Assembly: GCA_046155625.1 (NCBI GenBank)
Contig: JBJXFS010000112.1
Span: 46,841 to 110,840, forward strand
Reading direction: 5' to 3'
Source: Verrucomicrobiales bacterium
GTDB taxonomy: Bacteria; Verrucomicrobiota; Verrucomicrobiia; Verrucomicrobiales; V1-33
Length of the DNA: 64,000 nucleotides
Both the position numbers and the translations under genes were made by a program. The notes under the pieces are model-generated. The model saw nothing but the letters and a program-made list of their open reading frames with translations, was not told where the DNA came from and did no database searches. This document shows positions 491 through 20,755 of this stretch, piece after piece (the stretch's first letter is position 1; every line of letters begins with the position of its first letter).

Positions 491-3400
491 GCGCCGGAGA
501 ATGGAACACTCATCGACTACGACAACGCCGGCCGGTTCCTCGCCGCTCATTCCGTCCCCGTTCGTCTCGGCACCGCCACCGAGTTCCTCGGCCAAGTCCG
601 CCCCGTCACCACCGCCGCCGGCTCGACCGACCGCTTCCTCTTCTTCTTAAGCCCCGGCGAACTCCACTCGTCTGTCGCCGGCCAGCTCACCCTCGGGTTC
701 CAAACGATCGGTGCCACCGAGGCCGCCATCGTCAGCGGCGCCGCCACCGCCGGTGCCACCGTGGTCGATGGCGACCGCCGGGTGCGGTTCTACACGTTCA
801 ACACCGCCGGTCCGTTCATCCTCAGCGTCCCGTCCGGCTCCTACTCACTGGAAGTCTTCGTCCCAGGCGACATCGATGGCGACCGCGACGTCGATGGCAC
901 CGACACCCTGACCACTCAAGCGGACGTCAACCGCGATAGTGCCATCAACGCCGCCGATACCGCCCTGCGCGACGCCACTTTCGGATTCATCGCCAATCGT
1001 CCGCCCGCCGTCACTCCCGCCCCCGTCACCACCATCCGCGACTTCGCGGTCAGCGTGGATTTGAGCGCCATCGCCACCGATGCCGATGGCGATGCGCTGC
1101 GTTACCTCGTCTTCGGTGCGCTCAACGGCACCGTGGCACTCACCGGAGGCACGGTCGCGATCTTCACTCCTTCGCCAGGTTTTACCGGCGCCGCCAGTTT
1201 CCAAGTGATGGCGGATGACGGCGTCATACTCTCCGCTCCCGCCACCGCATCGGTTTCCGTTTCCGCCGCCACGGTGACCCGCCTGGCTGTCACGCCCGAA
1301 GATCGCCTCATGGTCGCAGGCCGTAGCGCAACTCTGGAAGTGACCGCCACCTTCTCCGACGGCCAAACACGCGTCGTTCCCGCCTCCCTCGTCTTGTTCA
1401 CCAGCCTGCGCCCCGAGGTCGCCGCCGTCACGTCGGCCGGGTCGATCCTCGCTCTCCAAAACGGCTACGGCGTCATTACCATCCGGGCGCTCGGCCTGAC
1501 CATCGCGACCACCGTGACCGTGGGCGCCGCGGATTCGCGCAATCTCGAGTTCTTCCCGCTGTCGTACACTTTGGCGCCCGGTGAATCACGTCAGTTCATG
1601 GTGCGCGAACGCGTGCCCACCGAAGTTCGCGACCTCTCCAGCGGGCAGTCAGGCGCCCTCTACTTCGTCTCCAACCCAGCCATCGGTACCATCTCCGCCA
1701 ACGGTCGGTTCGTCGCGATCGCGCCCGGCGAGGTCGACGTGACGATCGTTCATGGAGGCCAAAGCGTCATCGTCCCAATCCTGGTGGCGGCGCCGCAGTC
1801 TGGAACCGTCACCGTCGATGAACGGGGCGCCATGCTCGCCACCGGTGACGGAATTCAGGTCGGCGTCCCACAGGGCGCGCTTACCAGCCCGAGCCACCTG
1901 TCGGTCAGTCAACTCCAAGAAACCGACTTCGACTACGGAGCGCCCTATGGATGGGCATTCGCCGGAGCGCTCGAAATCGACGGCTTCGATGGACTGACCG
2001 ATGGCATTCCCTTGAGCGTGATCATGCCGGCTCCGGCCGGCGTTCTGCCCGGAACGGTGCTGCCTCTGCTGCAACCAGTGACCGTCAACCACGCCGACGG
2101 CCGGCGCGAAAACACCTGGCTCCTCGTCGATACCTTGCTCGTGGGCAGCGATGGTTTCATGCGCACTACCTCGCCCCCTAACATGGGCCTCGGATCGCGC
2201 GCCTACGCCAGTTCGTTCGGCATTGGCATCAACTATACTCAAGGCATGCGCGCCATGGCCGCCCAGGGTAGCTTCGGGCTCACCGGACTGCTTTACGCAA
2301 GCGCTGATATCGACCAGAGCACCCGAACCTTAAGCAGTAGTAGCGTGCGGGACAAGAAGGGCAAGGCCAAGGCGGTCGCTGCACCCGGCATCGTGGATCT
2401 TGAGATCGCGGGGGGACCAGGGTTGGGAGAAACCAAAGTGTTCGCGGCCGCGAGTCCCTTCGCGGATGTGTTTGTCCCGATCGTCACCTCATTTAATATT
2501 CGGATCAATTTCCACGTCGTGGGCAACAATGGATTGATACCAGCAGGCGAGACGGACGTACTCCTGCAAGAAGACCAGGTGGGTCAGGTGCTTTCCAAGG
2601 GATTCGGTCAGGCATTCCGCTTCTCGCTCCTAGGAACACAGAACGTGCCCGCTCCAGTCCTCACGGAGATGGAGTTCAAGTTTGACGAAATCGAGGAAAC
2701 TCTGCGCCCGGTTCTTCGCTTCGAAGGCCACCATTTTCTCATGGAAAGCCCCTGGGACCTCGCACCAGAACCCGAACTTGGCAATCGGCTCGAAGATTTG
2801 CGGGTGACGTTCGAGATCGGCGGCCGCGACAGCTTCAATCCGGATGGTACGCGCTTGATCAACGGCGGCCTCGATATCGTCGCGGAGGGTGACGATCTTT
2901 TGGAGATCAATTTGCTCGATGAGACGGAATCCAGATGGGAACTGATCGTCGCGTTGCCGCCAGAGGCCAGCCTGGGCGATGCCTTCATCACCCTGACCCG
3001 TCCCAATCAGGAGCCGCTCGACGGCGTCTTTGAGCGCCGCGAGTTCACGAGCAATCCGCTTCGCATTTTGAGCAACAATCGGTACGCTTTCGCCAGCAGC
3101 GGCGGCGCGGACAGCGTTTCCGTGATCGACACGCTGGCCACCACGGGGTCGGAAAACGACGAAGACGAGGAGGAGGAGGAGGAAGAGAGCGAGGAAGAGA
3201 AGCGCCTGCGCCCGGACGAGATTGCGCGGATCACGCTGGTCCAGTCGTCGACGGAAGGTCAACTCGGGCCCGGACAGATTGCAGCCACCGCCAACGGCGC
3301 GAGAGCCTACGTGGCGCTCACCTTGGCTGGATCGATCGCGGTGATCGATGCGGTCGGCCTACAGCAGGTGGACCTCGACCCGGATACTGACGGAGTGCAA

Positions 3401-6400
3401 ACGATCCTTCTCCCCACAGGGGCGGCTCCGTTCAAGCTGGCCCTCAGCCCGGACAACACACTGCTCTATGTGACCGACAGTCTGGCCCCGATGGTCTACG
3501 TCATCGACGTCAATCCGTTTTCCAACACATATCACCAGTTGCTCGAAACCATCGCGGTGGATCCCATTGTGGCGAAGCTTGGGCTGCGCGGCATCGCGGT
3601 GACATCCGACAACCGCAAAGTCGTCGTGGCGGCTCCCGGTCGCACGCTTTTCGGGGGATACGGAAGCGATCTGGGGAATCTCGTCCTCTTTACGTCGAGG
3701 TCCGAAGTCGCCAAAGGACATGATCGTGAGTTTCAGTTCGTGACCGCTGGGCCAAACCCCTATGAAGTCATCGCGACGGAAGACCCATTGGTCGTGCTCT
3801 ACAGCGACCGGCTCAGTTCCGCGCACACCCTGGGAATTCTGCGCCTCGACGCAGAATCAGACTTGGTGGAAACGAATTACGTCGACGCCACCCAGTTCGG
3901 CATCATCCCCCGCCTCATCGAGGGCCGCGCCACTCACGTCTTTGGGTTCCGAAACGCCCAAGGCATCGCTTACCTCCCAGCCAACACCTTCGAGGATCTG
4001 CAAATCGGGGAAGACGAAGAGAAGAAACCGATTCTTTTTGGCCCTCACCCTTCTTATGCCTTCGTGACCGGCTACAAGAAGTTCGTTCAGGGGGACACGC
4101 TGACCGACGCCAATTTCGCGCCAGTATTCGCCTACAATGCCTACTATCGTGATCCGGAACTCAACAGCGTCATTGGCGTGCCGCTGGCGGCGGGCGGCAA
4201 TATCGGCGTGATCCGCAATGTGCTGGGCGATTTCACCGATTCGCTCGAGAAACCCCGCATGGTAGCGGCCACGTCGCCGATCATGAATTCGTTCCCGGAC
4301 AACATCGTGATCTCGGGAACAACGGGTATGCTCTTCGCCGCTTATCAAGGCATTAACGCCGTGATGGCCTACGACGCGCTCAGCATGATCCGAATGATCG
4401 AGGAGGCGGTCGACTCGGAGTTCCTTCCCCAGTGGTCCCAGTTTCCCGAATCTGATTCGCTCGCTTACGCTGCCATGTCCGGGTTGCTGCGCGGTCCGCT
4501 TTCGACCGTGCCCATCGATGCCCTCAACCCGCTTCTGGCGGTGCGGGCCGATGTGAGGTTTTATTCAGCGATCGTGGAGCAAATTCTGGCGGTTGATGAG
4601 ACAACCCAAGAGCCGAAATTCACAGAAGATGGCTTACGTGAAGTACAGAGTGTCACAACCTATATGGTGTACGGGATTCCGCCCACCGATCTGTTTGGCG
4701 AATCTCCCAATCTCTTTGCTCCCATCTCGCTGCCACGACTCCCCCGAGGGCTGGCGATTCAGCCGACTCTGGACCAGACTGTCGTATCCCTGGTCTCGAC
4801 TCCCTACAACCAGGCACCGACCCTTAATAGTTTCCCGACTCCTCCACTCACCGTCGAGGCCGGCAAGGATGCCGAGGTTGAGGTCCACTCCGGCGCGTAC
4901 CACACGGAACACTCGCTTGTAACCTACCAGTCACTCGGGCGAATTAACGGGTTGCAGCTCCACTACGACTCTCTGCGCGCCAATCCAATCCAGATTTTCT
5001 ACGTGGCCTTCGCGGGTCTGGAGGAAGCCACTCAGATCAAGGATCCCGACACGAAAAACGTGGTGGAAAAGGATCGTGAATCGTTGCGCGTGTTCGTGCG
5101 GCTCACGGCCCGTCTCGGCGACAGGGTCATAACGCTGCGTGGATTGGATCCGGAAACCGCGGAGGAACTCGGATTGGAAGAGGACCTGCTCCGGACCGGC
5201 TTGGATCCTGTGGCTGCCGCAAAAGTGGGATTGCAGGGGAACGAGTTGATCTTTAAGTTCCCTGAGGAATTCGTCGAGGGCGAAACCTATGGCGCCGGCA
5301 TCCCGATCGACCTCCGGGACTTGGAAGGGGAAGTCGAGCCGGGTCTGTATACATTAATCGTCGAATACGGCGTTTTCGAATTCAACGGCGCAAGGTGGCA
5401 GGGGCGGTGGATCACGGAAAATCAGCCGATCGCCGTGGCGGGGGACGACGACGGCCTATTCGGCGCCGGCTGGGGCCTCAACGGCTACTCGCGAATCATT
5501 TCCGGCGATGGCGGCGCCCTGCTGGTTGAAGGAAACGGCACGGAACAGATCTTCCTGGCTCCCAACGACCGCACCCAACCATGGACGTCGATCTCCCTCG
5601 ACTACTCAAGGCTCGTCCTCACCGAGGATGGCAAGTTCCAACGCCGGATGCTCGACGGGACGACGTACGACTACGACTTGGACGGCTATCTGGAGACCAT
5701 CACCGACCGGCATGGCAACGTCACCGAGTTCGAGCATGCCGACGGAAAATTGGTCCGAGTGATCGATCCAGTCGGGTTGGAGACGGAGTTGGAGTATACG
5801 GGAGATCATGTCACGAAGGTGATCGATCCAGCCCGGCGGAAAACCGAGTTCGAGTATGACGGCACGCGCCTGATCTCCATCACGGACCCCGATGGCACCA
5901 AACGGACATTCCACTACGAACACGAAGAACTCGAGGGTGTAATGACAGGCCAAACCTACAAGCGGGGCAACGATGACGATCCGTATCAGTCCTCGTTCCG
6001 GGAAGATCTGGTGGTTGATGACCTCGGTCGCACCCGCGGAGGAACGCGCGTCGACGGCAGGGAGTTCACCCTGGATCCGGCGCAATCCCATGCCATCGCC
6101 GACCTGGAAGAAATGTTCGAAGTATGGGAGGAGACAGTGGATCCGGAGAAAATACCAGGCACTTTCCTGGAGCGTGTCGCCTGGACCAAGGAACTTCCGG
6201 CCAACGTGCGGCCCGATCACCCGGCCTTGGAAGACTTGGAAGACATCCAAGAGGGAAAAGTCCCAGCCTTTGCCGAGGCGGTTTACAAGGACTTCCGCGG
6301 AGTGGAAATCACCTTCGAGCTCGACGCCTTCGGGTTCTTCCTCTCGTCCGAAGACAAACTCGACCGCGAAGAAGGAAAACGGCAGTTCACCACCCGTACC

Positions 6401-9400
6401 GGCAGCGGACAAATTACCGCCGTGATCGACAAGGAGGAAAATGTGGTGCGCTACGAATACGACGCCTTCGGCAATGTCATAAAAATCACCGACTACCCCG
6501 ATGGACCGGATGGGGATCCCGCCGTCCAGGAATTCCGTTACGACCACGAAAAATTCAACCAGCTCGAATACGAGAAGGACGCCGTTGGCCGGGAGAAGGC
6601 TTACACCTTAAGCGACGCCGGAGATGCCACCGAAATTGAGGTGAACTGGTCCGTTGCTGTGGAGGGATCGCCATCCAGCGTTACCAGCCGGTTCACCTAC
6701 CTGGCCAATGGGCTTCTGGAGTCGTCCACCGACGGTGAACGCCACACCACCGAGTACATGTACGATGACCTGGGACGGCTCACCGAAATCGTGCAGGCCG
6801 ACGGCTCGCGCGTCCGCTATGAGCTCGACGGCGAGCCGGGCAATATTTCCGCCATCATCGACGAGGTAGGCAATCGAGTCGAAGTCGAAAGCGACGAAAT
6901 GAACCGCATTGTGAAAATTCGGCATGTCGTCGGCGGTGTCGCATACACCTCCACGCAGGATTACGACGCTGAAGGCAACGAGGTCGAACGGATTGACCGC
7001 AACGACGTGGAGATCACCTTCGCTTTCGATGCACTTGACCGGCGGATCGAGCGCCGTGAGGACGTCGATGGGGTGAATATCGTGACGCGATTCGGCTACG
7101 AATACGATTCGCTCCCCACCCCAGGATACAGTGATGTCGTAAGCAATGACACCCATGAGTATTTTTACGAACAAGATGCTCGCGGGTTTACCATGGTCCA
7201 AGTATTTGACCACCGCGGCAATCTCATAGACGTGTATGACACACTTGGCCGGAATACCCATTTTACATACAACAAGGCGGATCAGTTGATCGAGACGCGC
7301 CGACCCGATGGAAGCGTGGTGGAACTTGAGGTCGACGGCCGCGGGCGGGTAACGCAAGAAAAAGGTCCTACGGTCGAAAGAACCGAATACAGTTACGACA
7401 AAGCCAACAACTTGATTTCCCGAACAGTGAAAAACAATTTGGGATTCCTGGCGGGCGGCGACCAGGAGACGACCTGGACATACAATCTTTTCGATCTGGT
7501 CGCCTCAGAAACCAATCCTGAAACCGTGATCAGCCGTTATTATTACAACAGCAACGGTTTAGTCACTGCCGTGTATCTGGCCGCCAGGACCAATGATGAG
7601 TTCGTTCACGAGTATACTTACGATGAGCGTGGGCGCGAGCTATCGCACTCTCGACAGGGGATCGCCACGACCCGGACCGAGTATAACTCCAATGGAACCA
7701 TTATGGCTGTGATCGATGCGATAGGCAACCGAACCGAGTATGAGTACGACGAGCTTCGGCGACCCGTGCTCGTGCGAAACCCCATGGGCGAGGAAGTTCG
7801 TTATGTGCTCGATGGCAACGGAAATGTCCTGATCGAAATCGATCCCATGGGCAACGAATGGGAATTCTCCTATGACGGACTCAATCGTCGGACGCATGCT
7901 CGAAATCCGCTGGGCGACGAAACAATCGTCGAATATGATGAGCTCGGGAACAAGGTATCATTCACTGACGCCCTGGGGCATGTCACTACGTGGGAGTACG
8001 ACGAGGCCAGCCGCCTGGAGGAGCAGGTGAACGCGGACGGGGGCAGGATGGAATTCCGCTATGACACCAACGACAACGTCATTTGGCAAATGAATGCGCG
8101 CGGATTCGTGACCGAGCAGTTTTTTGACTCTTCTGGTCGGGCCCAGTGGTCAACCGACGCGCTAGGCGGCAGGACAACTATTAGCCACGATCAGGCGGGC
8201 AATGTGACTGGGCTTTTTGGGCCCGGCGGATCAGAAGACGACTTTCATTTTGAGTTCGACAAACTCAATCGGGTGGTCCGCATGATCCAGGCACCCGATA
8301 CTCCGCTGGCCTTGGTGACGCTAACAGAATATGATGCGATGGGTCGCATGACGACCAAGGTTGAGGCGGACGGAAGTGATGAAGCCCGCCGAAGCGAATG
8401 GACGTTCGACACCCTCGGTTTTGATCGCACTCAGACAATGGCAGCTGGCACGACGGCCGAGGCTACCACAAGGTACGTTCACGGGCTTACTGGATTACTC
8501 TTGAGCGTGATCGACGCGAGAGGGGAGTACTTCAAGACGACTATGCAGTATGACAGGGCCGATCGACTTGTCCTTGTGACATTTCCGACCGGTTCACCGG
8601 ATTCCGAGGAGACATACGCGGACATCGTTTACACTTACGATCCGGCGGGCCGCAAATTGACGGAAAGCGATCCGCGGAACAGCCAGTGGTTGACCAAGTT
8701 CACTTACGACGACGCCGGTCGGTTGATCGAGGAGGAGGATGCGAAAGGATTCAGGACCGAGTACACTTACGATGAAAATGGCAATGTCGAAACCGTGACC
8801 GATGCACGGGGAGGTGCAGCGGTGACGCGCCTCGAGTACGATACGATGAATCGCAGGAACCGAGCGACCGATCCGTACGGAGACAGCGAATCCGTGGTGT
8901 ACGATCTGAATGGCAACGTTGTGCGAGCCATCGGAAAGCGGGGGGGGGTAACGTCGTGGACATTCGACGCACTCGATCGGCTGGAATCGATGATCGATGC
9001 GGAGGGGAACGAGACGCGCTACACCTATCTGGCCGGCGGCCTGCTCCATCAGGTCATCGATGCGCGCGGATTCGTCTCCACCACGACCTATGACGCGCTA
9101 GGGCGCGTTTCCACGGAGTCGCGTGAAATCGGTCCGACCGTGCTGGATGCGCCGGGCTCGGCGACGGGAACAGTGACGGCCACCTTTACGTACGATCGTT
9201 TGGGCTACCTGCGTCGGACGACCGATCCGCGCGGGGCGGAATACTGGAGCGGGATGGACTATGACGCGATGGGCCGGGTGACAGAAAAGCGCGTTAACGT
9301 GGTGGCTCCTGAGCGGGAAGCCGAAGTTTACGTGAGCCGGATTACTTATGATTTGGTGGGGAACAAGCTGACGGAATCGGACCCACGCGGCAATGCGTTC

Positions 9401-12400
9401 ACGACCGTCTGGACCTACGACGCGCGCAAATTAATGCTCACCGAAACTCGTCCTTATGGGGAAACGAACGCTCTGGCGACCTGGCGGTGGACGTATGACG
9501 CTCTGGGTAACCGGACCAGCGAGACGGACCCGCGGGGCGATTACACACGGTCGGAGTTGTCCTATGATGAAATCGGGCGGCTTATCATCAAGTCGACCGC
9601 AATGGGGGATACCACGAGCGAACCGGAGTTCGCTGTCGTCAGGTACGACCATGACGAGGTCGGCAATGTGGTCACTATTCACCATGCGAGGCCCGGATTG
9701 ACGACCGAATACGTGTATGACTTGTTGAACCGGCCCATTGAGGGTACGGACGCGGAGGGGAACGTCACACTCTGGGGTTACGACGCGGCGGGCAATGTTG
9801 AAGTCATGACCGAGCAATCAGTGTCGAATTTCACGCCTACGAGGGTCACCTTCAGTGAGTACGACCTGTTGGATCGGCAGATACGCGTGACCAATCCATT
9901 GGGACACGTGGCGGAATACGAGTACGATGAAGTAGGTAACGTTACCCTGGTTCGTGGGCCATTCGCGGACGCGGGCGGACGCGCCCACGAAGTGACGAGA
10001 ACATTTGATGCCTTGGGGCGGATGACCAGCGAACGGGATCCCGAAGGGTTCTTGACGCGATGGGCCTACGACGCGATGGGAAATGCCGTTGGAGTTCAGG
10101 ATGATCGGGGCTTCCTGACTCGCGCCTCCTTCGACAGCCTGAACCGCCGCGTGAAGTTTGAACTCCCGATCCAAGAAGGCTCGTGGCAGGCGACAGAGTT
10201 CTTCTATGATGGCGCGTCCAACCTGATTCGCGAGGTGGATGCTCGGAACGTCGCTAACGAATATGTGTACGACGCTTCCAACAAACTGCTGCAGCTTGTC
10301 CGCGCCGCCGCCACCCCGGTCGAACAGAGCGAATCGTTCGAGTATGACGCGGTGGGCAATTTGGTCCGCTGGGTGGGGCCGCGCGGTCCGCCGTGCTTCA
10401 CGACATACACTTACGACGCTCGCAATCTGGTGCTCAGCACAGAAATGGAGACCGGCGCGCCACATCTTGATAATTTTCCGTCGGTGCGGCTGACCGAGTA
10501 TCGGATTTACGATGAAGAGGGCAATTTGATCGAGACGATTGGTGCCGGAGGCGACGATTTCCGGACCTCGCTTGAATACAATGGTCTGAATCAACTCATC
10601 CGCCGGATCGACCCGGAAGGCCGCGTGACGGAATGGGATTACGATCGCTATGGAAACATGTTGTCAGAGACCGATCCGTATGGCACGACGACCCGGCGGT
10701 TCGACGCCCTGAATCGGGAGACCCTGACCATCGATGCGGAGGGGAACCGCACGCGTCAAGAGTGGACCCTCAATCACCTGGAACTGAGGGTGGTGGATGC
10801 CCGGGGCAACGACACCCTGGTGCACCTGGATTCAAAGGGACGAGTGACCTGGGAGCGCGACGCGCTTGGAGGGATCATCACGCGGAGCTACGATGCGGCG
10901 GGGAATCTGGTCAGCGAAGTCAACAAGCGCGGGGTGCTGACCACCATGGAATACGATGGGCGCAATTTGCTGACCGAGTTGGTCGAGGCCGACGGCACGC
11001 TGGAGCGGCGGCGCACGTCCTATTTCTACAATGTCGTCGGCTGGCTGCTTACGGAAACGCCGCCCCGCGGATTGGAGTTCAATCGGTTGTATGAGTACGA
11101 TGATCTGAGCCGGGTGACGGCAAGATTCGTGAAGCTTGGGGGTGACGGATCGGAGATCGTCGAGAGATTCGCCTACGATTCCGCGGGCAACCTGGTGCGG
11201 ACGATTGATGGGAGGGGCGAGCCTTATGCGACGTCCAGTGAATTCGACGGCCTCAACAGGCTCGTGAGGACTGAGGTGTTCATTGGTGATGAGGGGAGCC
11301 TGGCCCCGACGGCGGTGGAACGACGGAGCTATGACGACCAGGGGCGCCTGTCCGGGATCGTTGATGCCCTGGGTTTCGTCACGACCATGGCCTATGATCG
11401 CGTCGATCGCATGACCGAAAGGCGCAGCCAACTGGAGGACGGGAGCGAGTGGCTTGAAACATGGGCTTATGACGATGCTGTCGGGGGCTTGGTCGTCGAG
11501 TATCGCGATGCGCTCCGCACCGTCGCCTCCGTGGCGATCCACGATGCCCTCGGGCGGGAAACGAGCCGCCAGACGCGCGAACTTGGGCTCACCACGACAA
11601 CCTACGATGCCAACGGTAACCGAACCGAGGTGGTGGCCAGCGGCGTGCGCACAACCTACGAATACGACCGGCTGAATCGGATGACGGCGACGATCGATGC
11701 GGATGGCAACCGGGTGACGTACAGTTACGATGCGAACGGCAATGTCGAGAGGATCACCGATCCGCGGCCCAATGTCGGTGTGACTAGCCAACATTACGAC
11801 TCCTTCGACAGGTTGGTCCGCATCGAACAGCCGGACGGTTCGACGCAATCCCAGACGTACGACGCGCACGACAACCGGACGTCTTTTACCGACGGGGCGG
11901 GCAACGTGACTCGGTTTGATTTTGACGGCGCCGACCGGATGATCCGCGAGTCGAATGCCGTCGGAGCGCGGCAATTCACGTATGATGGAGCCGGGAACCT
12001 GGTCCAGACGATCGACCGCAATGGACGGACGATACGCTACACAGTGAGCGGCCTCGGGCTGGTCGTCCGAGAAACGTGGATCCGAGGGATCGACGAAGTG
12101 GAGAGGGAAATCGATTTCGTGTATGATGTGGCGGGCAAACTGGTGCGAGCCGATGACGGGACCGCCGTCATCACACGGACGTACACTCAGGACATTCGCC
12201 AGGCGCTGAAGCAGGAGACATCGAGCCAGCTGGGAGCGAACCGTCTGGTGGTCATCGATCACACTCGCGACGCCCGTGGGCAGACCGCCACCCTCCGATT
12301 GGAAGTCGGCGGCACGCTGATCTTCAGCGAATCCCATGGCCGTAACGCGTTGAACCGGCTGGAATTTATCGAGCAGAACGGAGGCTTGGTGGCGTCCAAA

Positions 12401-18400: not shown

Positions 18401-20035
18401 GGTGACCCGGCGATCCTCGCGACGACGCATCGATTCGCCTCGCCCGGCGTGTTTACCGTCACGCTCCTGGCGCGGGATCAGGATGGGGCGGTGTCGCAGG
18501 CCTCCACGATCATCAGCGTGGTCGCTGGCGGGACGCTGGAGATCGTGGGATTCGAAATCAATGGAGGCGATCCCCAACGGTCGATGGTGACCCGGCTGAC
18601 GGTGACGTTCAACAGCGACGTGGCGGCCAGCCTGCAGTCGGTCGATTTCCGGTTGCTTAATACCACGACAGGGCTGGAAATCTCCGCCGGTGCCCTCTCG
18701 CTGCAGTGGATGAGCGCGGATAGCGCCGTGGTGATCACGTTCCCGAGTCTGGTCGGCCGGAGCCTCGCGGACGGCAACTACCGGTTGACCATCGACGCCG
18801 CGGGTATCGCGGACGCGGCAGGCCGCACGCTGGGGTCGGAGTCATCGGGCGATCCGACTTTTGTGTTCCACCGCCTCTTCGGCGATCAGGATGGCGATCG
18901 CGACGTCGATTTCCTCGACACGTTCCATTACCAGAGGACGCACGGGAAGGCGTCCACTGATGCGGCCTACGACGCGCGCTTCGACTGGGATGCGGACACC
19001 GATGTCGACGCGCTGGATCTTTTCCACTTCTCGCGAAATTACTTCACCACACTGCCGATGGTCCTGTTGATTCCCGATGGGCTGGATCGCGGAACCCAGG
19101 CGGACGCCGCTGACTCCGGGTTCAGCGCGCCGGTCCTGCCACCGGTGGCGGGCGGCGAGTCGGCCCCAGCACCGGGTGATGGTGACATGCTTCCCGTTCC
19201 GTCCGGGGATCGCGCGCGGGCCCCCGAACGGGTGCGGCGTCTAGCGGTCAAGCAAGGTGAGGCGATAAAACCGGCGGTCACCGGGCGTGAAATCAAGGTA
19301 ATGACCGCTGTTGTGCGGGGCGCCAGGGAGGTCCTGCCACTCACCCTGGGCCATCGATCGACTCCATTGCACCACGGCATCGGCTCCCGATGGGACGACG
19401 AACGTGAGCCGAACGTGCGGCTGGACACCGGTCACCCATTCCACGCGGGGTGGATCGAGCCGGATGATGACGCTCGGGCGTGGCACGATCTCGGGGTCGA
19501 TTTCGCTGCCCAGACCATTCACGAAGACGGATTCGTTGGGAGTCTGGAGGAAGACTTCGACAGTCAATGGGGTGGAAACGGGCGGGGTGCCGGTCGACCG
19601 GAGGCGGATCGTGGCCAGCCGGTTTCCGGTCCAGGGATTGGCAACCGGATTGATGTTCCCCTTGACCGCCACAAATCCGTGGCCCACCGAGATTTGGGCG
19701 CCGGCCGAGAAGCCGAAAAAATCCAGGGCTGGATCAATCAAAAGGGCGTTGGCCGGAGCCGGCTGCCATCGCGCACCATCGAACCTCACGACAAACCCGT
19801 AGCTGAAAAGGCCATGAGGCACCGGTTGGCGCCCCGGGGCCTCGACATCGCCGTCGAGCATCACTGGCAGCTCAATTTCGCCACCGCCCGCCGCCCCGAT
19901 GCCATACTGACCCCGCTCAAATTCCAGGCCGATATCGGCCCGCGACCCGTCCATTGTCAGGAGGATCGAAACAACGCCCAGCCACCATCGAAGCTGCCGG
20001 GCACCAAGGAGGCAAACCATGCAACCCAAGAATAA
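2..20035 (+). CDS. Giant RHS/YD-repeat multidomain protein, paralog A (5'-partial; 6,677 codons inside the window)
   Basis: The frame is open from base 2. Its translation PQSLALGGLSAHTPAWNAPAGWSLTS aligns with paralog B at 41101, so the GTG at 89 in the ORF track is not the start. It contains abundant YD repeats (YDxxGN, RYxYD), an Rhs core end motif, WGDG PKD motifs and DGDRDVD dockerin-like repeats. The first in-frame stop is at 20033-20035. The last ~0.8-1 kb is suspect (see findings). Confidence 0.92.
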   Translation, partial: PQSLALGGLSAHTPAWNAPAGWSLTSTRAVLQSVAGEYFDVGTGLPYHPQSYELAEAATGLTYRYERGASGAYTLAEITTAAGDRLVHSDSGLVSVKSGQRLGFTRDTAGRLTAITLPDGAQVRYAYTVSGGLLSVTKTATGARTLYGYRTEHDHLLTALAPPAPENGTLIDYDNAGRFLAAHSVPVRLGTATEFLGQVRPVTTAAGSTDRFLFFLSPGELHSSVAGQLTLGFQTIGATEAAIVSGAATAGATVVDGDRRVRFYTFNTAGPFILSVPSGSYSLEVFVPGDIDGDRDVDGTDTLTTQADVNRDSAINAADTALRDATFGFIANRPPAVTPAPVTTIRDFAVSVDLSAIATDADGDALRYLVFGALNGTVALTGGTVAIFTPSPGFTGAASFQVMADDGVILSAPATASVSVSAATVTRLAVTPEDRLMVAGRSATLEVTATFSDGQTRVVPASLVLFTSLRPEVAAVTSAGSILALQNGYGVITIRALGLTIATTVTVGAADSRNLEFFPLSYTLAPGESRQFMVRERVPTEVRDLSSGQSGALYFVSNPAIGTISANGRFVAIAPGEVDVTIVHGGQSVIVPILVAAPQSGTVTVDERGAMLATGDGIQVGVPQGALTSPSHLSVSQLQETDFDYGAPYGWAFAGALEIDGFDGLTDGIPLSVIMPAPAGVLPGTVLPLLQPVTVNHADGRRENTWLLVDTLLVGSDGFMRTTSPPNMGLGSRAYASSFGIGINYTQGMRAMAAQGSFGLTGLLYASADIDQSTRTLSSSSVRDKKGKAKAVAAPGIVDLEIAGGPGLGETKVFAAASPFADVFVPIVTSFNIRINFHVVGNNGLIPAGETDVLLQEDQVGQVLSKGFGQAFRFSLLGTQNVPAPVLTEMEFKFDEIEETLRPVLRFEGHHFLMESPWDLAPEPELGNRLEDLRVTFEIGGRDSFNPDGTRLINGGLDIVAEGDDLLEINLLDETESRWELIVALPPEASLGDAFITLTRPNQEPLDGVFERREFTSNPLRILSNNRYAFASSGGADSVSVIDTLATTGSENDEDEEEEEEESEEEKRLRPDEIARITLVQSSTEGQLGPGQIAATANGARAYVALTLAGSIAVIDAVGLQQVDLDPDTDGVQTILLPTGAAPFKLALSPDNTLLYVTDSLAPMVYVIDVNPFSNTYHQLLETIAVDPIVAKLGLRGIAVTSDNRKVVVAAPGRTLFGGYGSDLGNLVLFTSRSEVAKGHDREFQFVTAGPNPYEVIATEDPLVVLYSDRLSSAHTLGILRLDAESDLVETNYVDATQFGIIPRLIEGRATHVFGFRNAQGIAYLPANTFEDLQIGEDEEKKPILFGPHPSYAFVTGYKKFVQGDTLTDANFAPVFAYNAYYRDPELNSVIGVPLAAGGNIGVIRNVLGDFTDSLEKPRMVAATSPIMNSFPDNIVISGTTGMLFAAYQGINAVMAYDALSMIRMIEEAVDSEFLPQWSQFPESDSLAYAAMSGLLRGPLSTVPIDALNPLLAVRADVRFYSAIVEQILAVDETTQEPKFTEDGLREVQSVTTYMVYGIPPTDLFGESPNLFAPISLPRLPRGLAIQPTLDQTVVSLVSTPYNQAPTLNSFPTPPLTVEAGKDAEVEVHSGAYHTEHSLVTYQSLGRINGLQLHYDSLRANPIQIFYVAFAGLEEATQIKDPDTKNVVEKDRESLRVFVRLTARLGDRVITLRGLDPETAEELGLEEDLLRTGLDPVAAAKVGLQGNELIFKFPEEFVEGETYGAGIPIDLRDLEGEVEPGLYTLIVEYGVFEFNGARWQGRWITENQPIAVAGDDDGLFGAGWGLNGYSRIISGDGGALLVEGNGTEQIFLAPNDRTQPWTSISLDYSRLVLTEDGKFQRRMLDGTTYDYDLDGYLETITDRHGNVTEFEHADGKLVRVIDPVGLETELEYTGDHVTKVIDPARRKTEFEYDGTRLISITDPDGTKRTFHYEHEELEGVMTGQTYKRGNDDDPYQSSFREDLVVDDLGRTRGGTRVDGREFTLDPAQSHAIADLEEMFEVWEETVDPEKIPGTFLERVAWTKELPANVRPDHPALEDLEDIQEGKVPAFAEAVYKDFRGVEITFELDAFGFFLSSEDKLDREEGKRQFTTRTGSGQITAVIDKEENVVRYEYDAFGNVIKITDYPDGPDGDPAVQEFRYDHEKFNQLEYEKDAVGREKAYTLSDAGDATEIEVNWSVAVEGSPSSVTSRFTYLANGLLESSTDGERHTTEYMYDDLGRLTEIVQADGSRVRYELDGEPGNISAIIDEVGNRVEVESDEMNRIVKIRHVVGGVAYTSTQDYDAEGNEVERIDRNDVEITFAFDALDRRIERREDVDGVNIVTRFGYEYDSLPTPGYSDVVSNDTHEYFYEQDARGFTMVQVFDHRGNLIDVYDTLGRNTHFTYNKADQLIETRRPDGSVVELEVDGRGRVTQEKGPTVERTEYSYDKANNLISRTVKNNLGFLAGGDQETTWTYNLFDLVASETNPETVISRYYYNSNGLVTAVYLAARTNDEFVHEYTYDERGRELSHSRQGIATTRTEYNSNGTIMAVIDAIGNRTEYEYDELRRPVLVRNPMGEEVRYVLDGNGNVLIEIDPMGNEWEFSYDGLNRRTHARNPLGDETIVEYDELGNKVSFTDALGHVTTWEYDEASRLEEQVNADGGRMEFRYDTNDNVIWQMNARGFVTEQFFDSSGRAQWSTDALGGRTTISHDQAGNVTGLFGPGGSEDDFHFEFDKLNRVVRMIQAPDTPLALVTLTEYDAMGRMTTKVEADGSDEARRSEWTFDTLGFDRTQTMAAGTTAEATTRYVHGLTGLLLSVIDARGEYFKTTMQYDRADRLVLVTFPTGSPDSEETYADIVYTYDPAGRKLTESDPRNSQWLTKFTYDDAGRLIEEEDAKGFRTEYTYDENGNVETVTDARGGAAVTRLEYDTMNRRNRATDPYGDSESVVYDLNGNVVRAIGKRGGVTSWTFDALDRLESMIDAEGNETRYTYLAGGLLHQVIDARGFVSTTTYDALGRVSTESREIGPTVLDAPGSATGTVTATFTYDRLGYLRRTTDPRGAEYWSGMDYDAMGRVTEKRVNVVAPEREAEVYVSRITYDLVGNKLTESDPRGNAFTTVWTYDARKLMLTETRPYGETNALATWRWTYDALGNRTSETDPRGDYTRSELSYDEIGRLIIKSTAMGDTTSEPEFAVVRYDHDEVGNVVTIHHARPGLTTEYVYDLLNRPIEGTDAEGNVTLWGYDAAGNVEVMTEQSVSNFTPTRVTFSEYDLLDRQIRVTNPLGHVAEYEYDEVGNVTLVRGPFADAGGRAHEVTRTFDALGRMTSERDPEGFLTRWAYDAMGNAVGVQDDRGFLTRASFDSLNRRVKFELPIQEGSWQATEFFYDGASNLIREVDARNVANEYVYDASNKLLQLVRAAATPVEQSESFEYDAVGNLVRWVGPRGPPCFTTYTYDARNLVLSTEMETGAPHLDNFPSVRLTEYRIYDEEGNLIETIGAGGDDFRTSLEYNGLNQLIRRIDPEGRVTEWDYDRYGNMLSETDPYGTTTRRFDALNRETLTIDAEGNRTRQEWTLNHLELRVVDARGNDTLVHLDSKGRVTWERDALGGIITRSYDAAGNLVSEVNKRGVLTTMEYDGRNLLTELVEADGTLERRRTSYFYNVVGWLLTETPPRGLEFNRLYEYDDLSRVTARFVKLGGDGSEIVERFAYDSAGNLVRTIDGRGEPYATSSEFDGLNRLVRTEVFIGDEGSLAPTAVERRSYDDQGRLSGIVDALGFVTTMAYDRVDRMTERRSQLEDGSEWLETWAYDDAVGGLVVEYRDALRTVASVAIHDALGRETSRQTRELGLTTTTYDANGNRTEVVASGVRTTYEYDRLNRMTATIDADGNRVTYSYDANGNVERITDPRPNVGVTSQHYDSFDRLVRIEQPDGSTQSQTYDAHDNRTSFTDGAGNVTRFDFDGADRMIRESNAVGARQFTYDGAGNLVQTIDRNGRTIRYTVSGLGLVVRETWIRGIDEVEREIDFVYDVAGKLVRADDGTAVITRTYTQDIRQALKQETSSQLGANRLVVIDHTRDARGQTATLRLEVGGTLIFSESHGRNALNRLEFIEQNGGLVASKRVGFVFDPANYRPLEVTRTSSLVGSVAVVSTWTYNTRGFVASLTHRAGAVTRNAYSFEYNQTGFVSRRTDGDGTADFSYDPVNQVSGVVYSDPAFRDESFVYDGAGNRVDSADHGPAYVTGPDNRLLNDGVFAYAYDAEGNLIRRTEVSTGLVRSFAWDYRNRLTEITDLSAAAVVTRTIRYTYDALDRRIAADTETANAGRAVRHFVYSGDDVVLELTASGPDATATPSMAYLHGLGTDEVFAQDNLNGTVLWLLADDNMTIRDVVSHTGALVEHYKVNAFGNVVGKLNAGWVTRYILQSREFDADTSLYFFRARYYDPSTGRFISRDPIGFDSGEQNLYRFTANNPVNDRDPSGTKGLLKSAIQNLHYALVGVQVMFDKGEISGWQAGLFAFGAATLLGGAELTGLVYDTAQLGVNVTFAPEYVGSTETQSSLGTAWRDHLAGIEGNPWKRTVAFAGEFVAGFVGLLALLPAAPVINAALSGLAFSALISGEPVIAGEMLAGVVTLGGITKGLRVGGSRVAGFLSNRYPGLSKVTDSKIYKFYANANAKVEKWSHKNWTSARSWINDRVKNWHPDWNTPVTKLMRATMDRITAKVNAKLEPYEWRGNGLIASMRAFNAKYNPLASTYKNAFESSYTTGGLISKERMSEAYTILSKQSNMGRQTQAAQAMGDRPDRTARWLEHAIHEGGVDRNTAGELREIMKGMHKVGYEDITAMGGATTRTINKSREIVAAFAEGEIGNITLNSKFAWANIRSAYETLRDNPSLLGNRYASAEEFLKDVLTTKAKVYAHEKAHFRTFDRLASDIARRFNLNLTNARNWLAEAGSKKANGRARNAEVLARVEFEAERQARRWLGASDEAAVALTLEAHLPKYGRRGVTGQHIEDLNQRASAVFRAQAQAKAQAAQASNATRAALGGISLGSPLTGAERAARATGEARAALGGISLGATLTGAERAARATSEARAALGGMSLGAPLTGAELAAQRVRAGVFSNTPWVDGSVRAGLRSILDNDFVKASIGFGNHKAMSASRGGAQRGAEFAAADASVSSWMNRLLGNGGGSIGPSHAQIPLLNSAPMAARPTWRGNVLGGLKSGEMPTFAAPPPRPAPLSVFGAAAPVPGRSVASGGGQIDDAGPSGAGFDEASPLMNWLIQSDPTLTSSGDPSTPVDGSAWAGRLDDMSRRALGMWEGALGWLPEVGIEVVWTDLPAGQIGMSLITSSGARGEALTGRVFLDRDADGFGWWSGDEGEAGLWTASTGGASSAAAGTEAAGRIDLLTVMTHEFGHLLGFNSFFQGFAARTTVRGDGSAYFTAEGGPYVLTGDLSHLDSGVHPWDLMNATIRPGERKLPSAANVAMLEAAWTGYTGETTTASGVRFFYILADTFAVPEGGFVLLADAVAEQLAGDVPTGLQDGGFAAPGHPDWDVIGEVEFQGGTVRLGEDPDRIFSSLSQVFRLPAGARFLEFTISDLVLGGGGRTPADAFEISLLHAGTFAPVVGVVSGLSHTDALLNVQPGGVVFAADTVALTGSVAEGDFGVRIDLAGVPAGTPLLLTFDLIRFGVADSTVTINSALVKGEPVVESTPPVVTGGQPVAVRQGDRFEATGSFTDAGGADVWTGLVDFGDGSGPRPLVLSGSGFVLDHVFLKAGVWSVVVTITDSRGDSGSTTWEVTVENVAPVVAAVADQAVKTGRPVTVTTTFTDPGDDTFTAVIDWGDGTVVPAVVDAAGRIVSGGHVYATPGTFTAVLRLSDGTTDVTVPFLVTAEADVTRVLVTGAASVVEGSAYVIALTAEGPRAEAITSWTINWGDGSVTTYNGALRLAAHVYGRPQSAYTITAVASDGVAQFESGPLSVEVLNSAPRMLRFIPGNRVAEGSPVRLTVVFDDRGWSDQHVVTAHWGDDTTSTTTLPEGLRRFDLTHVYTNNRPNGAPYDVRIVLTDSGQNAIEILTIAEVINVAPDVSVAGPATGSSGSEVTFTGSVGDAGLTDAIEVSWDFGDGVVLPFAPAGDPAILATTHRFASPGVFTVTLLARDQDGAVSQASTIISVVAGGTLEIVGFEINGGDPQRSMVTRLTVTFNSDVAASLQSVDFRLLNTTTGLEISAGALSLQWMSADSAVVITFPSLVGRSLADGNYRLTIDAAGIADAAGRTLGSESSGDPTFVFHRLFGDQDGDRDVDFLDTFHYQRTHGKASTDAAYDARFDWDADTDVDALDLFHFSRNYFTTLPMVLLIPDGLDRGTQADAADSGFSAPVLPPVAGGESAPAPGDGDMLPVPSGDRARAPERVRRLAVKQGEAIKPAVTGREIKVMTAVVRGAREVLPLTLGHRSTPLHHGIGSRWDDEREPNVRLDTGHPFHAGWIEPDDDARAWHDLGVDFAAQTIHEDGFVGSLEEDFDSQWGGNGRGAGRPEADRGQPVSGPGIGNRIDVPLDRHKSVAHRDLGAGREAEKIQGWINQKGVGRSRLPSRTIEPHDKPVAEKAMRHRLAPRGLDIAVEHHWQLNFATARRPDAILTPLKFQADIGPRPVHCQEDRNNAQPPSKLPGTKEANHATQE
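860..985 (+). other. Paralog A: dockerin/EF-hand-like Ca-binding repeat pair
   Basis: GDIDGDRDVDGTDTLTTQADVNRDSAINAADTAL, i.e. two DxDxDG-type loops as in type I dockerin repeats. Confidence 0.7.
995..1790 (+). other. Paralog A: cadherin-like domain followed by two Big_2-type Ig-like domains
   Basis: NRPPAVTP...ATDADGDALRY...FTPSPGFTGAASF is cadherin-like/VCBS style. The Big_2-like signatures are LEVTATFSDGQTRVVPASLVLFTS...AAVTSAGSILALQNGYGVITI and YTLAPGESRQF...ISANGRFVAIAPGEVDVTIVHGG. Confidence 0.65.
3075..4390 (+). other. Paralog A: YVTN/lactonase-type beta-propeller
   Basis: Blade-like repeats: GARAYVALTLAGSIAVIDAVG, PFKLALSPDNTLLYVTDSLAPMVYVIDVNP, GIAVTSDNRKVVVAAPG, GMLFAAYQGINAVMAYD. 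Confidence 0.65.
3152..3205 (+). repeat. Acidic low-complexity insertion (ENDEDEEEEEEESEEEK) inside the propeller of paralog A
   Basis: GAG/GAA/GAC codon run gaaaacgacgaagacgaggaggaggaggaggaagagagcgaggaagagaag. Paralog B has no counterpart at the aligned position (~44230). Confidence 0.9.
5650..13471 (+). other. Paralog A: main YD-repeat array (~2,607 aa) ending in the Rhs-associated core
   Basis: Continuous YD repeats run from YDYDLDGYLETITDRHGNVTEFEH onward (e.g. RYEYDAFGNVIKITD, YTYDENGNVETVTDARG, YSYDANGNVERITDPR). The array ends with FRARYYDPSTGRFISRDPIGFDSGEQNLYRFTANNPVNDRDPSGT. Confidence 0.92.
13340..13471 (+). other. Paralog A: Rhs core C-terminal boundary motif (putative aspartyl autoprotease site)
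   Basis: RARYYDPSTGRFISRDPIGF-x19-DPSGT matches the canonical R-x-RYYDPxxGRFxxxDPIG ... NLYxYxxNNPxxxxDPxG end of Rhs/TcC cores. The residue after the last G is T rather than the usual L/W. Confidence 0.85.
13472..15934 (+). other. Paralog A: post-core, paralog-specific cassette (~821 aa) with Gly/Ala-rich hydrophobic segments
   Basis: Hydrophobic stretches at ~13500-13640 and 13760-13935 (TVAFAGEFVAGFVGLLALLPAAPVINAALSGLAFSALISG). A more A/T-rich unknown region follows, containing a lone HEKAH pentapeptide at 14774-14788. I could not recognise any similarity to the equivalent segment of paralog B (54304-56724). Confidence 0.6.
15137..15358 (+). repeat. In-frame 78-nt tandem repeat, ~2.8 copies (26-aa unit RAALGGISLGxxLTGAERAARATxEA)
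   Basis: Unit starts at 15137, 15215 and 15293, each beginning with an Arg codon. Protein: RAALGGISLGSPLTGAERAARATGEA / RAALGGISLGATLTGAERAARATSEA / RAALGGMSLGAPLTGAELAA. Absent from paralog B. Confidence 0.9.
15935..16500 (+). other. Paralog A: conserved HEFGH (zincin-like) module
   Basis: EVVWTDLPAGQIGMSLI...GRVFLDRDADGFGWW...GRIDLLTVMTHEFGHLLGFN (HExxH at 16238-16252) ...HPWDLMNATIRPGERKLPS. About 70% aa identity to 56725-57300 of paralog B. Confidence 0.6.
17135..18523 (+). other. Paralog A: five tandem PKD domains
   Basis: Five ~90-aa units carry the PKD hallmark: VDFGDGSG, IDWGDGTV, INWGDGSV, AHWGDDTT, WDFGDGVV. Each is followed by HVY/HRF...G.YTV.L...D. Confidence 0.85.
18524..19050 (+). 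other. Paralog A: terminal Ig-like domain plus dockerin-like repeat pair (last recognisable domain)
   Basis: LEIVGFEINGGDPQRSMVTRLTVTFNSDV...DGNYRLTIDAAGIADAAGRTL, then FHRLFGDQDGDRDVDFLDTFHYQ...FDWDADTDVDALDLFHFSRNY. Confidence 0.7.
19241..20029 (-). CDS. Secreted hypothetical protein, paralog of the adjacent PEP-CTERM protein, with an RFYRL-type C-terminal beta-sandwich motif. Lies wholly antisense within the tail of paralog A
   Basis: Signal-peptide-like N-terminus (MVCLLGARQLRWWLGVVSILLT). Clear homology to the 20118-20744 product: LFSYGF/LFSYGI, PALDFFGFSAG/AALDFNGVAGPG, GFVAVKGNIN/EFIGVKGTVN, GNRLATIRL/GGRVLAEFQL. The C-terminus reads VVQWSRSMAQGEWQDL...RRFYRLTLL. The start could be ATG 20029 or ATG 20020. 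Confidence 0.75.
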   Translation of the reverse strand: MGCMVCLLGARQLRWWLGVVSILLTMDGSRADIGLEFERGQYGIGAAGGGEIELPVMLDGDVEAPGRQPVPHGLFSYGFVVRFDGARWQPAPANALLIDPALDFFGFSAGAQISVGHGFVAVKGNINPVANPWTGNRLATIRLRSTGTPPVSTPLTVEVFLQTPNESVFVNGLGSEIDPEIVPRPSVIIRLDPPRVEWVTGVQPHVRLTFVVPSGADAVVQWSRSMAQGEWQDLPGAPHNSGHYLDFTPGDRRFYRLTLLDR

Positions 20036-20117
20036 GTTTGATCAATCCCCAAGTCAACGGCGCCCGAGCCGCGCGGGGAACCGATGGTTTGAAATGCCGG
20101 CCCGACACCTGAGGTCG

Positions 20118-20744
20118 ATGGGCGGCGGGTGGATTCCAATGGCGTGCGCAGCAGGGGTATCATTTCTACTGGCGAGTCCCGCCCGATCTGTCGTGATTAG
20201 CTTCGTGGACCCACAGCCGGTGGTGCTGGTGAACGATCCGGTGCGGATGACGGTGACGATCGACCACGAGGGGAGCGATACGGACGCGTTGTTCAGCTAC
20301 GGCATCTCGGTCGTCGGGGATTGGGAAGCTCAGGCCATCTTTCCTCAGGGCGTGGACGTTCCCGCCGCACTCGATTTTAACGGGGTGGCCGGTCCGGGCG
20401 CGTTTATCGGGCTGGGCGACGAGTTCATCGGAGTGAAGGGAACGGTGAACCTTTCGGTCAACCCGATCGAGATGTACGGGGGGAGGGTGCTGGCGGAGTT
20501 TCAGCTCCGCTTCGCGCAGCCCGGATCGTACGAATTGAGGCTGGACTTCTTCAACACACTCGGTCCCACGGAAGACATCTTCGTGAACCAGGATGGTATC
20601 GCGATCGATGACCAGATCGAGTTCAGACCCGGCCTTGTCCAAGTGGTCATCCCTGAACCGCGGATTCCCACCCTGCTGCTGGCCGCGGCTGTCTCCCTGC
20701 TCGTGCGGCGCTCGCGAATTCGTCCCGCCCCCGCGCAAGGTTAG
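20118..20744 (+). CDS. PEP-CTERM sorting-domain secreted protein
   Basis: Signal-peptide-like MGGGWIPMACAAGVSFLLASPARS. The C-terminus VIPEPRIPTLLLAAAVSLLVRRSR gives a PEP motif, a TM helix and a basic cluster. I prefer the start at ATG 20118 (gagg 3 nt upstream) over the track start at 20019. ATG 20139 is also possible. Confidence 0.8.
   Translation: MGGGWIPMACAAGVSFLLASPARSVVISFVDPQPVVLVNDPVRMTVTIDHEGSDTDALFSYGISVVGDWEAQAIFPQGVDVPAALDFNGVAGPGAFIGLGDEFIGVKGTVNLSVNPIEMYGGRVLAEFQLRFAQPGSYELRLDFFNTLGPTEDIFVNQDGIAIDDQIEFRPGLVQVVIPEPRIPTLLLAAAVSLLVRRSRIRPAPAQG
20646..20720 (+). other. PEP-CTERM motif (exosortase recognition signal)
   Basis: PEP is encoded at 20652-20660 (cctgaaccg). A 15-aa hydrophobic helix follows, then RRSR at 20706-20717. 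Confidence 0.8.
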
Positions 20745-20755
20745 AGCACGGAGAT

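Follow-up and report, generated by a model that had tools for sequence, protein, structure and literature searches.

The locus analysed in this study raises a simple question: why should a giant open reading frame (ORF) run on for about 1 kb beyond its last recognisable domain, straight through a gene encoded on the opposite strand? The stretch of DNA concerned (hereafter, the window) comprises 64,000 nucleotides (nt) of a Verrucomicrobiales contig (JBJXFS010000112.1, positions 46,841 to 110,840), in which the genes follow in the order giant ORF A (+), a small gene (-), a paralog of the small gene (+), an ORF at 20816 (+) and giant ORF B (+). The plus strand is continuously coding from A into the paralog, the small gene is wholly embedded in it, and the stop codon of A comes 14 nt past the start codon of the paralog. 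The reading that we favour, with a probability of roughly 0.45, is that the locus works like a noncontiguous operon (excludon) whose stretch opposite the interspersed gene is kept translatable. The features on which the argument turns (coordinates of the window; aa, amino acids) are as follows:

89..20035, plus strand: giant ORF A, 6648 codons and a stop, with Ig-like, cadherin-like, RHS and PKD repeats, then the C-terminal module, the linker and the read-through tail
18539..19060, plus strand: conserved C-terminal module of A, in which a dockerin-like pair of Ca-binding loops comes after a beta domain (EINGG..QRSMV..LADGNY)
18860-19060, plus strand: the dockerin-like loop pair, FGDQDGDRDVD...DWDADTDVDALD...TTLPM
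19061..19240, plus strand: linker of 60 codons, Ala/Pro/Gly/Asp-rich, between the dockerin-like module and the overlapped gene
19241..20035, plus strand: antisense part of the tail of A, with codon boundaries common to the small gene, ending in TAA (20033-20035)
19241..20020, minus strand: the small gene, 259 aa, ATG at 20020-20018 and stop TAG at 19243-19241, with a predicted signal peptide, cohesin-like beta-sandwich and C-terminal Ig/FN3-like domain
20029..20057, minus strand: putative promoter of the small gene, -35 box TTGACT (20057-20052), 17-nt spacer, -10 box TATTCT (20034-20029), 8 nt to the ATG
20006..20021, plus strand: Shine-Dalgarno-like site and start of the paralog, AAGGAGG-N6-ATG, the ATG lying 14 nt upstream of the stop of A
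20019..20744, plus strand: paralog of the small gene, a cohesin-like domain and a C-terminal PEP-CTERM-like anchor (VIPEPRIPTLLLAAAVSLLVRRSR), overlapping A by 17 nt

The first-pass annotation had stated that A meets no stop codon between its last domain and position 20033, and both the ORF listing and the translation agree. The final module ends ...DALDLFHFSRNYFTTLPM / ...DWDADTDVDALDLFHFSRNYFTTLPM at nt 19060 and no in-frame stop follows until the TAA at 20033-20035, which leaves an extension of 324 codons, composed of the 60-codon linker and 264 codons antisense to the minus-strand ORF. The translation of this zone lacks domain character, as had also been noted: neither a Pfam family nor a structure match was found for the tail, whose composition is of the antisense-translation type (rich in R, G, A, P, D, E and H). 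The two frames are codon-aligned, with position 1 of A opposite position 3 of the small gene, and in this register antisense stops arise solely from the sense codons TTA, CTA and TCA.

The module after which A might be expected to end is dockerin-like. It contains the two tandem EF-hand-like Ca-binding loops (DxDxDxxxD) that in type I dockerins are each followed by a helix, GDQDGDRDVDFLD and DWDADTDVDALD, and the Asp/Gly columns are invariant in the module alignment. The best solved-structure match of a profile built from the last 67 residues before the linker is the Clostridium cellulolyticum dockerin 2vn5_B (E 9.4e-6). Pfam Dockerin_1 (PF00404) matches 10 of the 11 members of the module family at E <= 1 (best E 2.6e-7), the module of A itself falling below the gathering score (16.7 bits, cut-off 22.9; E 0.009). 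Eight other proteins that carry the module end 5-8 residues beyond it, so a canonical A would stop near 19060-19070. The closest homologue of the module of A, P0004 (locus L004, on a contig of NCBI GCA_003704835.1), carries a highly charged tail of 95 residues ending ...DDDEEVPWF; this protein was rejected as a guide to the stop position in true orthologues, its tail being unrelated and not antisense to any gene. C-terminal extensions past this module may be common in the subfamily.

The gene through which A reads is real. The window was compared with L008 (a 53-kb metagenome contig from a different Joint Genome Institute sample), with the short contigs L001, L002 and L003, and with a more distant copy, L005. 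The small protein has four database homologues (P0001-3 and P0019; 248-262 aa, 45-65% identity), called on short contigs, one of them alone in a different context, and a fifth copy, intact but uncalled, lies under the tail of a giant gene on L008. Nucleotide identity follows the order position 2 > 1 > 3 in the minus frame in ten out of ten pairwise codon alignments, and the sense aa identity exceeds the identity of the antisense translation in every pair (0.65 vs 0.54 for the window and L008, 0.46 vs 0.29 for the window and L003). The proposed homology to the neighbouring plus-strand protein is confirmed (36% identity over 135 aa, E 3e-11, against 20019-20744), and the C-terminal W..W..RFYRL motif that had been singled out is invariant in the homologues, the domain motif in full being QWS..W..LPGAPHNSG..RFYRL. 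Homologues and a coding signal having both been found, the earlier judgement that the minus ORF is unlikely to be a shadow is upheld, and with it the claim that A reads through a real opposite-strand gene, which the homologues, the substitution pattern, the promoter and the predicted fold all support.

The start of the small gene needs correction. A minus ORF of 262 aa from a TTG (19241..20029) exists as listed, but the conserved start is the ATG at 20020 (259 aa) and not the TTG at 20029. We take the ATG as the start because the TTG falls inside the gene's own -10 box, and the conserved promoter fixes the start. When aligned on the start codon, the window, L008, L001, L002 and L003 have TTGAC(T/A)-16/17-TAnnnn-8-ATG in common. 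This putative promoter is of the sigma-70 type and its spacing implies a leaderless or near-leaderless mRNA.

On the evidence of its predicted fold, the small protein is cohesin-like. An AlphaFold2 model made from a 10-sequence alignment (mean predicted local distance difference test score, pLDDT, 75.6; predicted template modelling score, pTM, 0.71) consists of an N-terminal helix (signal peptide) and two beta domains. Cohesin modules are nine-stranded jelly-roll beta-sandwiches of ~140 aa, and the top Foldseek matches of the model in the PDB are cohesins (2w1n, a cohesin with FN3; 1g1k; 2vn5_A; 6kgf_A) with a probability of 1.0 and a target TM of ~0.65-0.71, and several cohesin-dockerin complexes are also among the matches. 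In sequence searches no Pfam family at E <= 1, Cohesin (PF00963) included, and no NCBIfam match was obtained. The C-terminal domain of ~65 aa (W..[LF]PGAPHNSG...RF[YF]RL) is tandemly duplicated in distant relatives and also occurs on otherwise different proteins; its carriers include P0020 (L006 10001-10999) and P0021, one carrier is source-named 'T5SS/PEP-CTERM-associated repeat protein', and it appears to be an uncharacterised mobile Ig/FN3-like domain.

The whole arrangement recurs on L008. An exhaustive HMMER search with the tail alone revealed one true relative, the giant protein P0024, the last 286 residues of which align to the tail at 51% identity, ending 3 residues before its stop; a second match, P0025, was dismissed as a repetitive, unrelated protein. 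The two features of L008 concerned are:

10001-23362, plus strand: giant gene encoding P0024 (4,453 aa)
22568-23356, minus strand: intact ORF of 262 aa under the tail of the giant

The layout of the opposite-strand gene is the same as in the window, and the paralog (68-71% identical to that of the window) starts 17 nt before the stop of the giant, exactly as in the window. The bodies of the two giants (89-19060 and 10001-22426, respectively) are 26-35% identical; the corresponding values are 71-78% for their last ~200 residues, 78% for the dockerin-like modules and 65% for the small proteins. Judged by these identities, the dockerin module, the small gene and the paralog are a conserved 3' cassette of ~2.3 kb on otherwise different giant genes, and the divergent bodies suggest recombination or very fast divergence of the body. 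The L008 giant is source-named 'DNA-binding beta-propeller fold protein YncE', and 286 residues of its database entry are antisense translation.

These data bear on two earlier statements. It had been said that orthologues conserving the tail at the protein level would speak against a read-through; the tail is indeed 51-54% identical in an orthologue, but this identity is imposed by the conserved minus gene. The suggestion that the original stop codon of A was lost holds in an ancient sense only, given where the module homologues stop, since the stop-less state predates the split of the window and L008 and has been kept since.

Both ORFs are intact in the window and L008, and the antisense frame is open in the four remaining loci. 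On L001, L002 and L003 no stop interrupts it along the entire small gene or in the codons that remain to the contig end (16, 2 and 41, respectively), and it ends 2-15 codons beyond the annotated start of the small gene. The L005 copy (45% identity) lies in a different neighbourhood, with a transposase downstream; its antisense frame is open and bounded 34 nt after the gene, and no giant gene, dockerin module or paralog is present within 10 kb. This contig is error-prone (fragmented genes, frameshift-like stretches in the small gene) and was used cautiously. Further loci were sought in genome and metagenome contigs, both by alignment of the small protein and with the degenerate DNA pattern PGAPHNSG..LDF, and none was found, which leaves an orthologue set of six in all. 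As far as sequence comparison goes, at least one distant genome conserves the nested arrangement, and three more are compatible with it.

The junction between A and the paralog is equally specific. A CATG palindrome (20018-20021) forms the overlapping start codons of the small gene and the paralog, and the stop of A coincides with the TA of the -10 box belonging to the small gene. Four loci (the window, L008, L001 and L002) retain the plus-strand geometry GGAG-N6-ATG-N11-TAA/TAG, in which the stop is that of the giant, though the small-protein residues there differ. The ORF opened by the junction ATG is the complete paralog in the window and on L008, the signal peptide and N-terminus of the paralog followed by the contig end on L002, and a frame open for 50 codons to the contig end on L001. 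On L003 the CATG-N11-TAA is kept, but the plus-strand ORF has 27 codons, its TGA overlapping the ATG of the paralog (ATGA). No other in-frame ATG, GTG or TTG precedes the paralog's signal peptide on L008, so the junction ATG must be used there. A search of the 1.2 kb upstream of the paralog found no plus-strand promoter-like site. The geometry of the junction suggests translational coupling, without proving it. The promoter of the small gene lies inside the N-terminal coding extension of the paralog and the GGAGG of the paralog inside codons 3-5 of the small gene, a nesting that is conserved in four or five loci.

By motif only, the paralog has the PEP motif, hydrophobic helix and basic cluster of a surface anchor (...VIPEPRIPTLLLAAAVSLLVRRSRIR... 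in the window, VIPEPRMATLLLAGIGWLLVRRGR on L008). No PEP-CTERM sorting domain of NCBIfam/TIGRFAM matches it (NCBIfam E <= 0.1), Pfam gives only a weak PKD match, and no exosortase gene is seen in the window or on L008.

The linker (19061-19240), which includes LIPDGLDRGTQADAADSGFSAPVLPPVAGGESAPAPGDGDMLPVPSGDR, contains no stop in the frame of A, and both other plus-strand frames contain stops. Between the window and L008 it has diverged almost past alignment (60 vs 47 codons), and both versions are stop-free and in frame. A position-specific base-composition model derived from the two giant ORFs of the window (A and B) prefers the frame of A in four out of four loci, by a margin of 3-15 log units. 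In that frame all four linkers are Ala/Pro/Gly-rich, without Cys and with a single Trp in one of them, and their other frames are Arg/Trp/Cys-rich. No terminator-like site was found in the linker, and its RNA structure is nothing unusual (z-score 0.32; no intrinsic terminator).

How much of this could arise by chance? Stretches of 262 codons without TTA, CTA or TCA make up 14-15% of such stretches in real genes of these loci when the GC content at third codon positions (GC3) is 0.65-0.78, as it is for the overlap in the window, 22% at 0.78-0.84 and 43% above that. The window itself provides a base rate for long open antisense frames, in the form of two shadow ORFs of 423-438 codons at 60.8-63.9 kb, one (60819-62135, -) opposite a sulfatase gene (60777-62276, +; Pfam E 8e-52) and the other (62653-63924, +) opposite a 3-keto-disaccharide hydrolase gene (62563-63882, -; E 2e-79). 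An open antisense frame in one gene is therefore not beyond chance; what is notable is its stop-free joining to a real giant ORF, conserved elsewhere.

The codons that would make antisense stops are nevertheless depleted. Across the six small genes TTA, CTA and TCA occur 0 times against 12.0 expected from the codon usage of the giant genes, whereas the count for 16 other rare codons, 128, is close to the 122.7 expected. The observed-to-expected ratios for stop-making and other rare codons are 0.46 and 0.78 in core genes, and 1.17 and 1.51 in the cassette's neighbours; when scaled by these ratios, the expectation becomes about 6-9 stops in six genes. For the four orthologues found without use of the tail, ~6 stops are expected (P ~0.0025; empirical product ~0.002), and the same probability without L005 is ~0.01-0.03. 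These values have to be read in the light of codon ancestry shared by the closer orthologues, gene heterogeneity and the small sample.

The minus frame is clearly selected, and the tail frame is without aa-level or synonymous-site constraint, yet stop-depleted and joined to a coding-like linker. Identity at four-fold sites is 0.61 in the small gene and 0.61-0.63 in the flanking dockerin module, and extra synonymous-site constraint was accordingly rejected as a sign of dual coding; the apparent excess relative to the paralog is no larger than noise and composition effects allow. Because sense identity exceeds tail identity in all ten pairs and codon position 1 of the tail is its least conserved, the substitution pattern indicates that selection acts on the frame of the small gene and that the aa sequence of the tail is a passenger.

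Under the excludon-like reading, ribosomes that pass the dockerin module would go on translating across the antisense gene. Such translation would keep the long plus-strand transcript from being terminated prematurely (Rho-type) or left with a non-stop end, and by translational coupling it would supply the start codon of the anchored cohesin (the paralog) with ribosomes. Transcription of A, being antisense to the gene of the soluble cohesin, would make expression mutually exclusive, with the giant dockerin protein and anchored cohesin on one side and the soluble cohesin on the other. In the tail only the absence of stops in the same frame would be selected, and not the sequence. A more tentative part of this reading is that selection keeps a sequence-agnostic 'ribosome bridge', the frame being open for no other purpose than to let ribosomes follow the polymerase over ~1 kb and pass to the next gene.

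Several points favour a translatable stretch. These are: (i) zero antisense stops in six orthologues, with other rare codons at expectation, (ii) a diverged linker that is still open, in frame and coding-like, (iii) no terminator-like site before the small gene and no plus-strand promoter-like site before the paralog, (iv) an architecture that is indel-free and conserved on L008, (v) an antisense frame open to the contig end on L001, L002 and L003, (vi) the GGAG-N6-ATG-N11-stop kept in four loci, with an L008 paralog that has no other usable start, (vii) the presumed functional link between the dockerin-like A and its cohesin-like neighbours, and (viii) the precedent set by noncontiguous operons and excludons (PMC7154746).

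Several points weigh against it. The stop depletion is only moderately significant, as a core-gene reference raises the chance of an open frame to ~0.4-0.5 per gene and the orthologues are not fully independent, and the small gene shows no synonymous constraint beyond the stops. The frame is open in L005 without a giant gene, so that chance or an intrinsic property can yield an open frame. The whole arrangement is seen in two loci only, one of which (L008) was found via the tail, a biased ascertainment. L003 lacks the GGAG, and the position of the stop of A is explicable by the -10 box of the small gene alone. The bridge also presumes that Shine-Dalgarno sites and Rho are used in this lineage, and none of the RNA sequencing runs searched for the locus contains it.

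The strongest rival, which we consider quite possible, is that the tail is a neutral passenger: the stop behind the dockerin module was lost in an ancestor, or never existed, and the state persists by chance, without function. A codon-aligned antisense frame of a GC-rich gene is naturally stop-poor, only three codons being able to close it, and open antisense frames of this length are common here, as the 14-43% of stretches and the shadows of 420-440 codons opposite two genes attest. A disordered appendage of 324 residues would be harmless on a secreted protein of 6,300 residues, and the unrelated 95-aa tail on the P0004 module indicates that extra tails are tolerated. The lack of aa-level or synonymous-site constraint, of a domain match and of anything but antisense-type composition in the tail fits this explanation as well, as does the open frame of L005 with no giant gene nearby. 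It accounts less well for the complete absence of antisense-stop codons in six orthologues whose other rare codons are at expectation, and for a linker that has been rewritten by substitutions and indels and is nonetheless stop-free, in frame and coding-like wherever it is visible; a neutral linker of 50-60 codons would easily gain a stop or a frameshift over such divergence.

It is unlikely that the tail is a functional part of A, whether as a disordered spacer, a dockerin-masking pro-region or an extreme C-terminal secretion signal. The frame is open to its very end, where the last ~15 residues (KLPG[TD].EA[ND]H) and their DNA are more conserved than is usual for the N-region of a signal peptide; this conservation is equally explained by the 5' end of the small gene together with the ribosome-binding site of the paralog. 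A TolC-like OEP gene lies just downstream of the paralog on L008, but no ABC or MFP genes of type I secretion are seen in the window or on L008. The linker resembles natural Ala/Pro-rich inter-domain linkers. Against this stand the substitutions, in which the tail frame bears no mark of protein-level selection (conservation is lowest at its position 1), and the lack of any domain or structure match.

An artefact or decay, in which an indel between 19050 and 19240 masks the true stop or A is a pseudogene, is highly improbable. The window derives from a metagenome and its word depth is low (2-7x). However, Logan contigs (contigs, not reads) of three other runs of the same biofilter-metagenome study (X1, X2 and X3) span 18561-20204 without insertions or deletions and agree base for base, X1 covering the region in a single 1481-nt contig with zero differences; the same read-through without a stop is present on the independent L008 contig, which comes from a different sample and species, and the A body of 6,300 codons is intact. 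The assembly indel at ~19050-19240 that the first-pass annotation had offered as an alternative is thus not borne out, and we regard it as very unlikely. A further run, X4 (a mollusc metagenome), yielded only 151-nt fragments with few substitutions, too little for a ratio of nonsynonymous to synonymous rates (dN/dS). Finally, that the minus-strand ORF is the shadow and the tail the truly selected coding frame is barely credible: gene callers did pick the giant ORF on L008 and leave the small gene uncalled, but the minus protein has a paralog encoded on the plus strand in its own frame, homologues called on short contigs with one standing alone elsewhere, conservation in the order position 2 > 1 > 3, a conserved promoter and a confident cohesin-like predicted fold.

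The second giant of the window provides a comparison for A:

21697-59988, plus strand: giant ORF B, 12,763 codons, ending in PKD repeats and a different C-terminal region

Neither a comparable dockerin-like module nor a read-through tail is present in B. Within A the GC content falls from 0.667 (1-2000) to 0.556 (6001-8000) and returns to 0.64, the GC skew flips sign along both giant genes, and the repeat blocks are thus uneven in composition.

In GC-rich genomes a long antisense ORF is normally written off as a shadow, and gene callers settle the conflict by dropping one of the two partners. On L008 this has left a real cohesin-like gene uncalled, and a 286-residue antisense translation has entered the protein databases within a giant protein. 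The present locus is a case in which neither ORF can be discarded, since the small gene is real and no stop ends the giant ORF ahead of it. Should the open frame be under selection, that selection would act on translatability alone and not on the encoded sequence, which would extend the idea of the noncontiguous operon to coding sequence. If the bridge is true, a giant dockerin protein would be coupled to an anchored cohesin while a soluble competitor cohesin on the other strand is silenced.

Noncontiguous operons and excludons are known from Listeria and from Staphylococcus aureus (menE-menC-MW1733-ytkD-MW1731; PMC7154746). As in these systems, co-oriented genes have a gene of opposite strand set among them and no terminator-like site in between, a long sense transcript would serve the flanking genes as mRNA and at the same time be antisense to the interspersed gene, and the two strands have related or opposing functions, here predicted to be a dockerin protein with an anchored cohesin as opposed to a soluble cohesin. 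Transcripts and reciprocal regulation are features of the described cases, and the likeness here is one of sequence layout. In the described excludons the stretch opposite the interspersed gene is an untranslated region or spacer, whereas here it is the upstream ORF, ending 14 nt past the next start.

Long antisense overlapping genes (OLGs) offer a second comparison. Translation and purifying selection have been reported for olg1 and olg2 of Pseudomonas aeruginosa (957 and 1536 nt; PMC8850804) and for the antisense OLGs of enterohaemorrhagic Escherichia coli (EHEC; PMC9927249). The tail of A resembles them in that an open frame of several hundred codons lies entirely antisense to an established gene, that the genome is GC-rich, and that the frame is open in relatives as well. 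The known examples are free-standing, with starts of their own; here a giant gene extends at its C-terminal end into the overlap, clear selection is seen on the embedded gene, and the tail is without aa-level selection. Shadow ORFs and spurious antisense translations (the AntiFam concept, PMC3308159; ORF statistics, PMC3454372) are the third. Like them, the tail is what a real GC-rich gene yields when its opposite strand is read in codon register; it has the composition and the lack of homologues to be expected of such a frame, and similar shadows occur elsewhere in the window. Unlike them, it is not an ORF called on its own: with no stop between it and a gene of 6,300 codons, translation of A entails translation of the tail, and the junction is conserved between genomes.

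A 'planctosome' of non-cellulosomal cohesins and dockerins has been proposed for freshwater Planctomycetes (PMC6461901); the sulfatase and 3-keto-disaccharide hydrolase genes of the window, and the names that its weak homologues bear, are indirect hints of that phylum. The window shares with cohesin-dockerin systems a C-terminal dockerin-like double Ca-loop on a large secreted protein and adjoining cohesin-like beta-sandwich proteins, one of them predicted to be surface-anchored. It differs from cellulosomes in that its proteins are below threshold for, or without a match to, Pfam Cohesin and Dockerin, in that there are no glycoside hydrolases, and in that the anchor is a PEP-CTERM-like motif and not SLH or sortase. 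Given the predicted folds, the locus would encode a dockerin-like giant (residues ~6258-6324) and two adjacent cohesin-like proteins as its presumptive binding partners, and thereby a directly testable binding pair. Long translated antisense overlaps, noncontiguous operons and shadow ORFs are each already known; what is new is that selection is clear for the embedded gene while the frame overlapping it prolongs a giant gene at its C-terminal end, that this continuation bridges exactly to the start of the next gene, and that the two strands encode presumptive binding partners.

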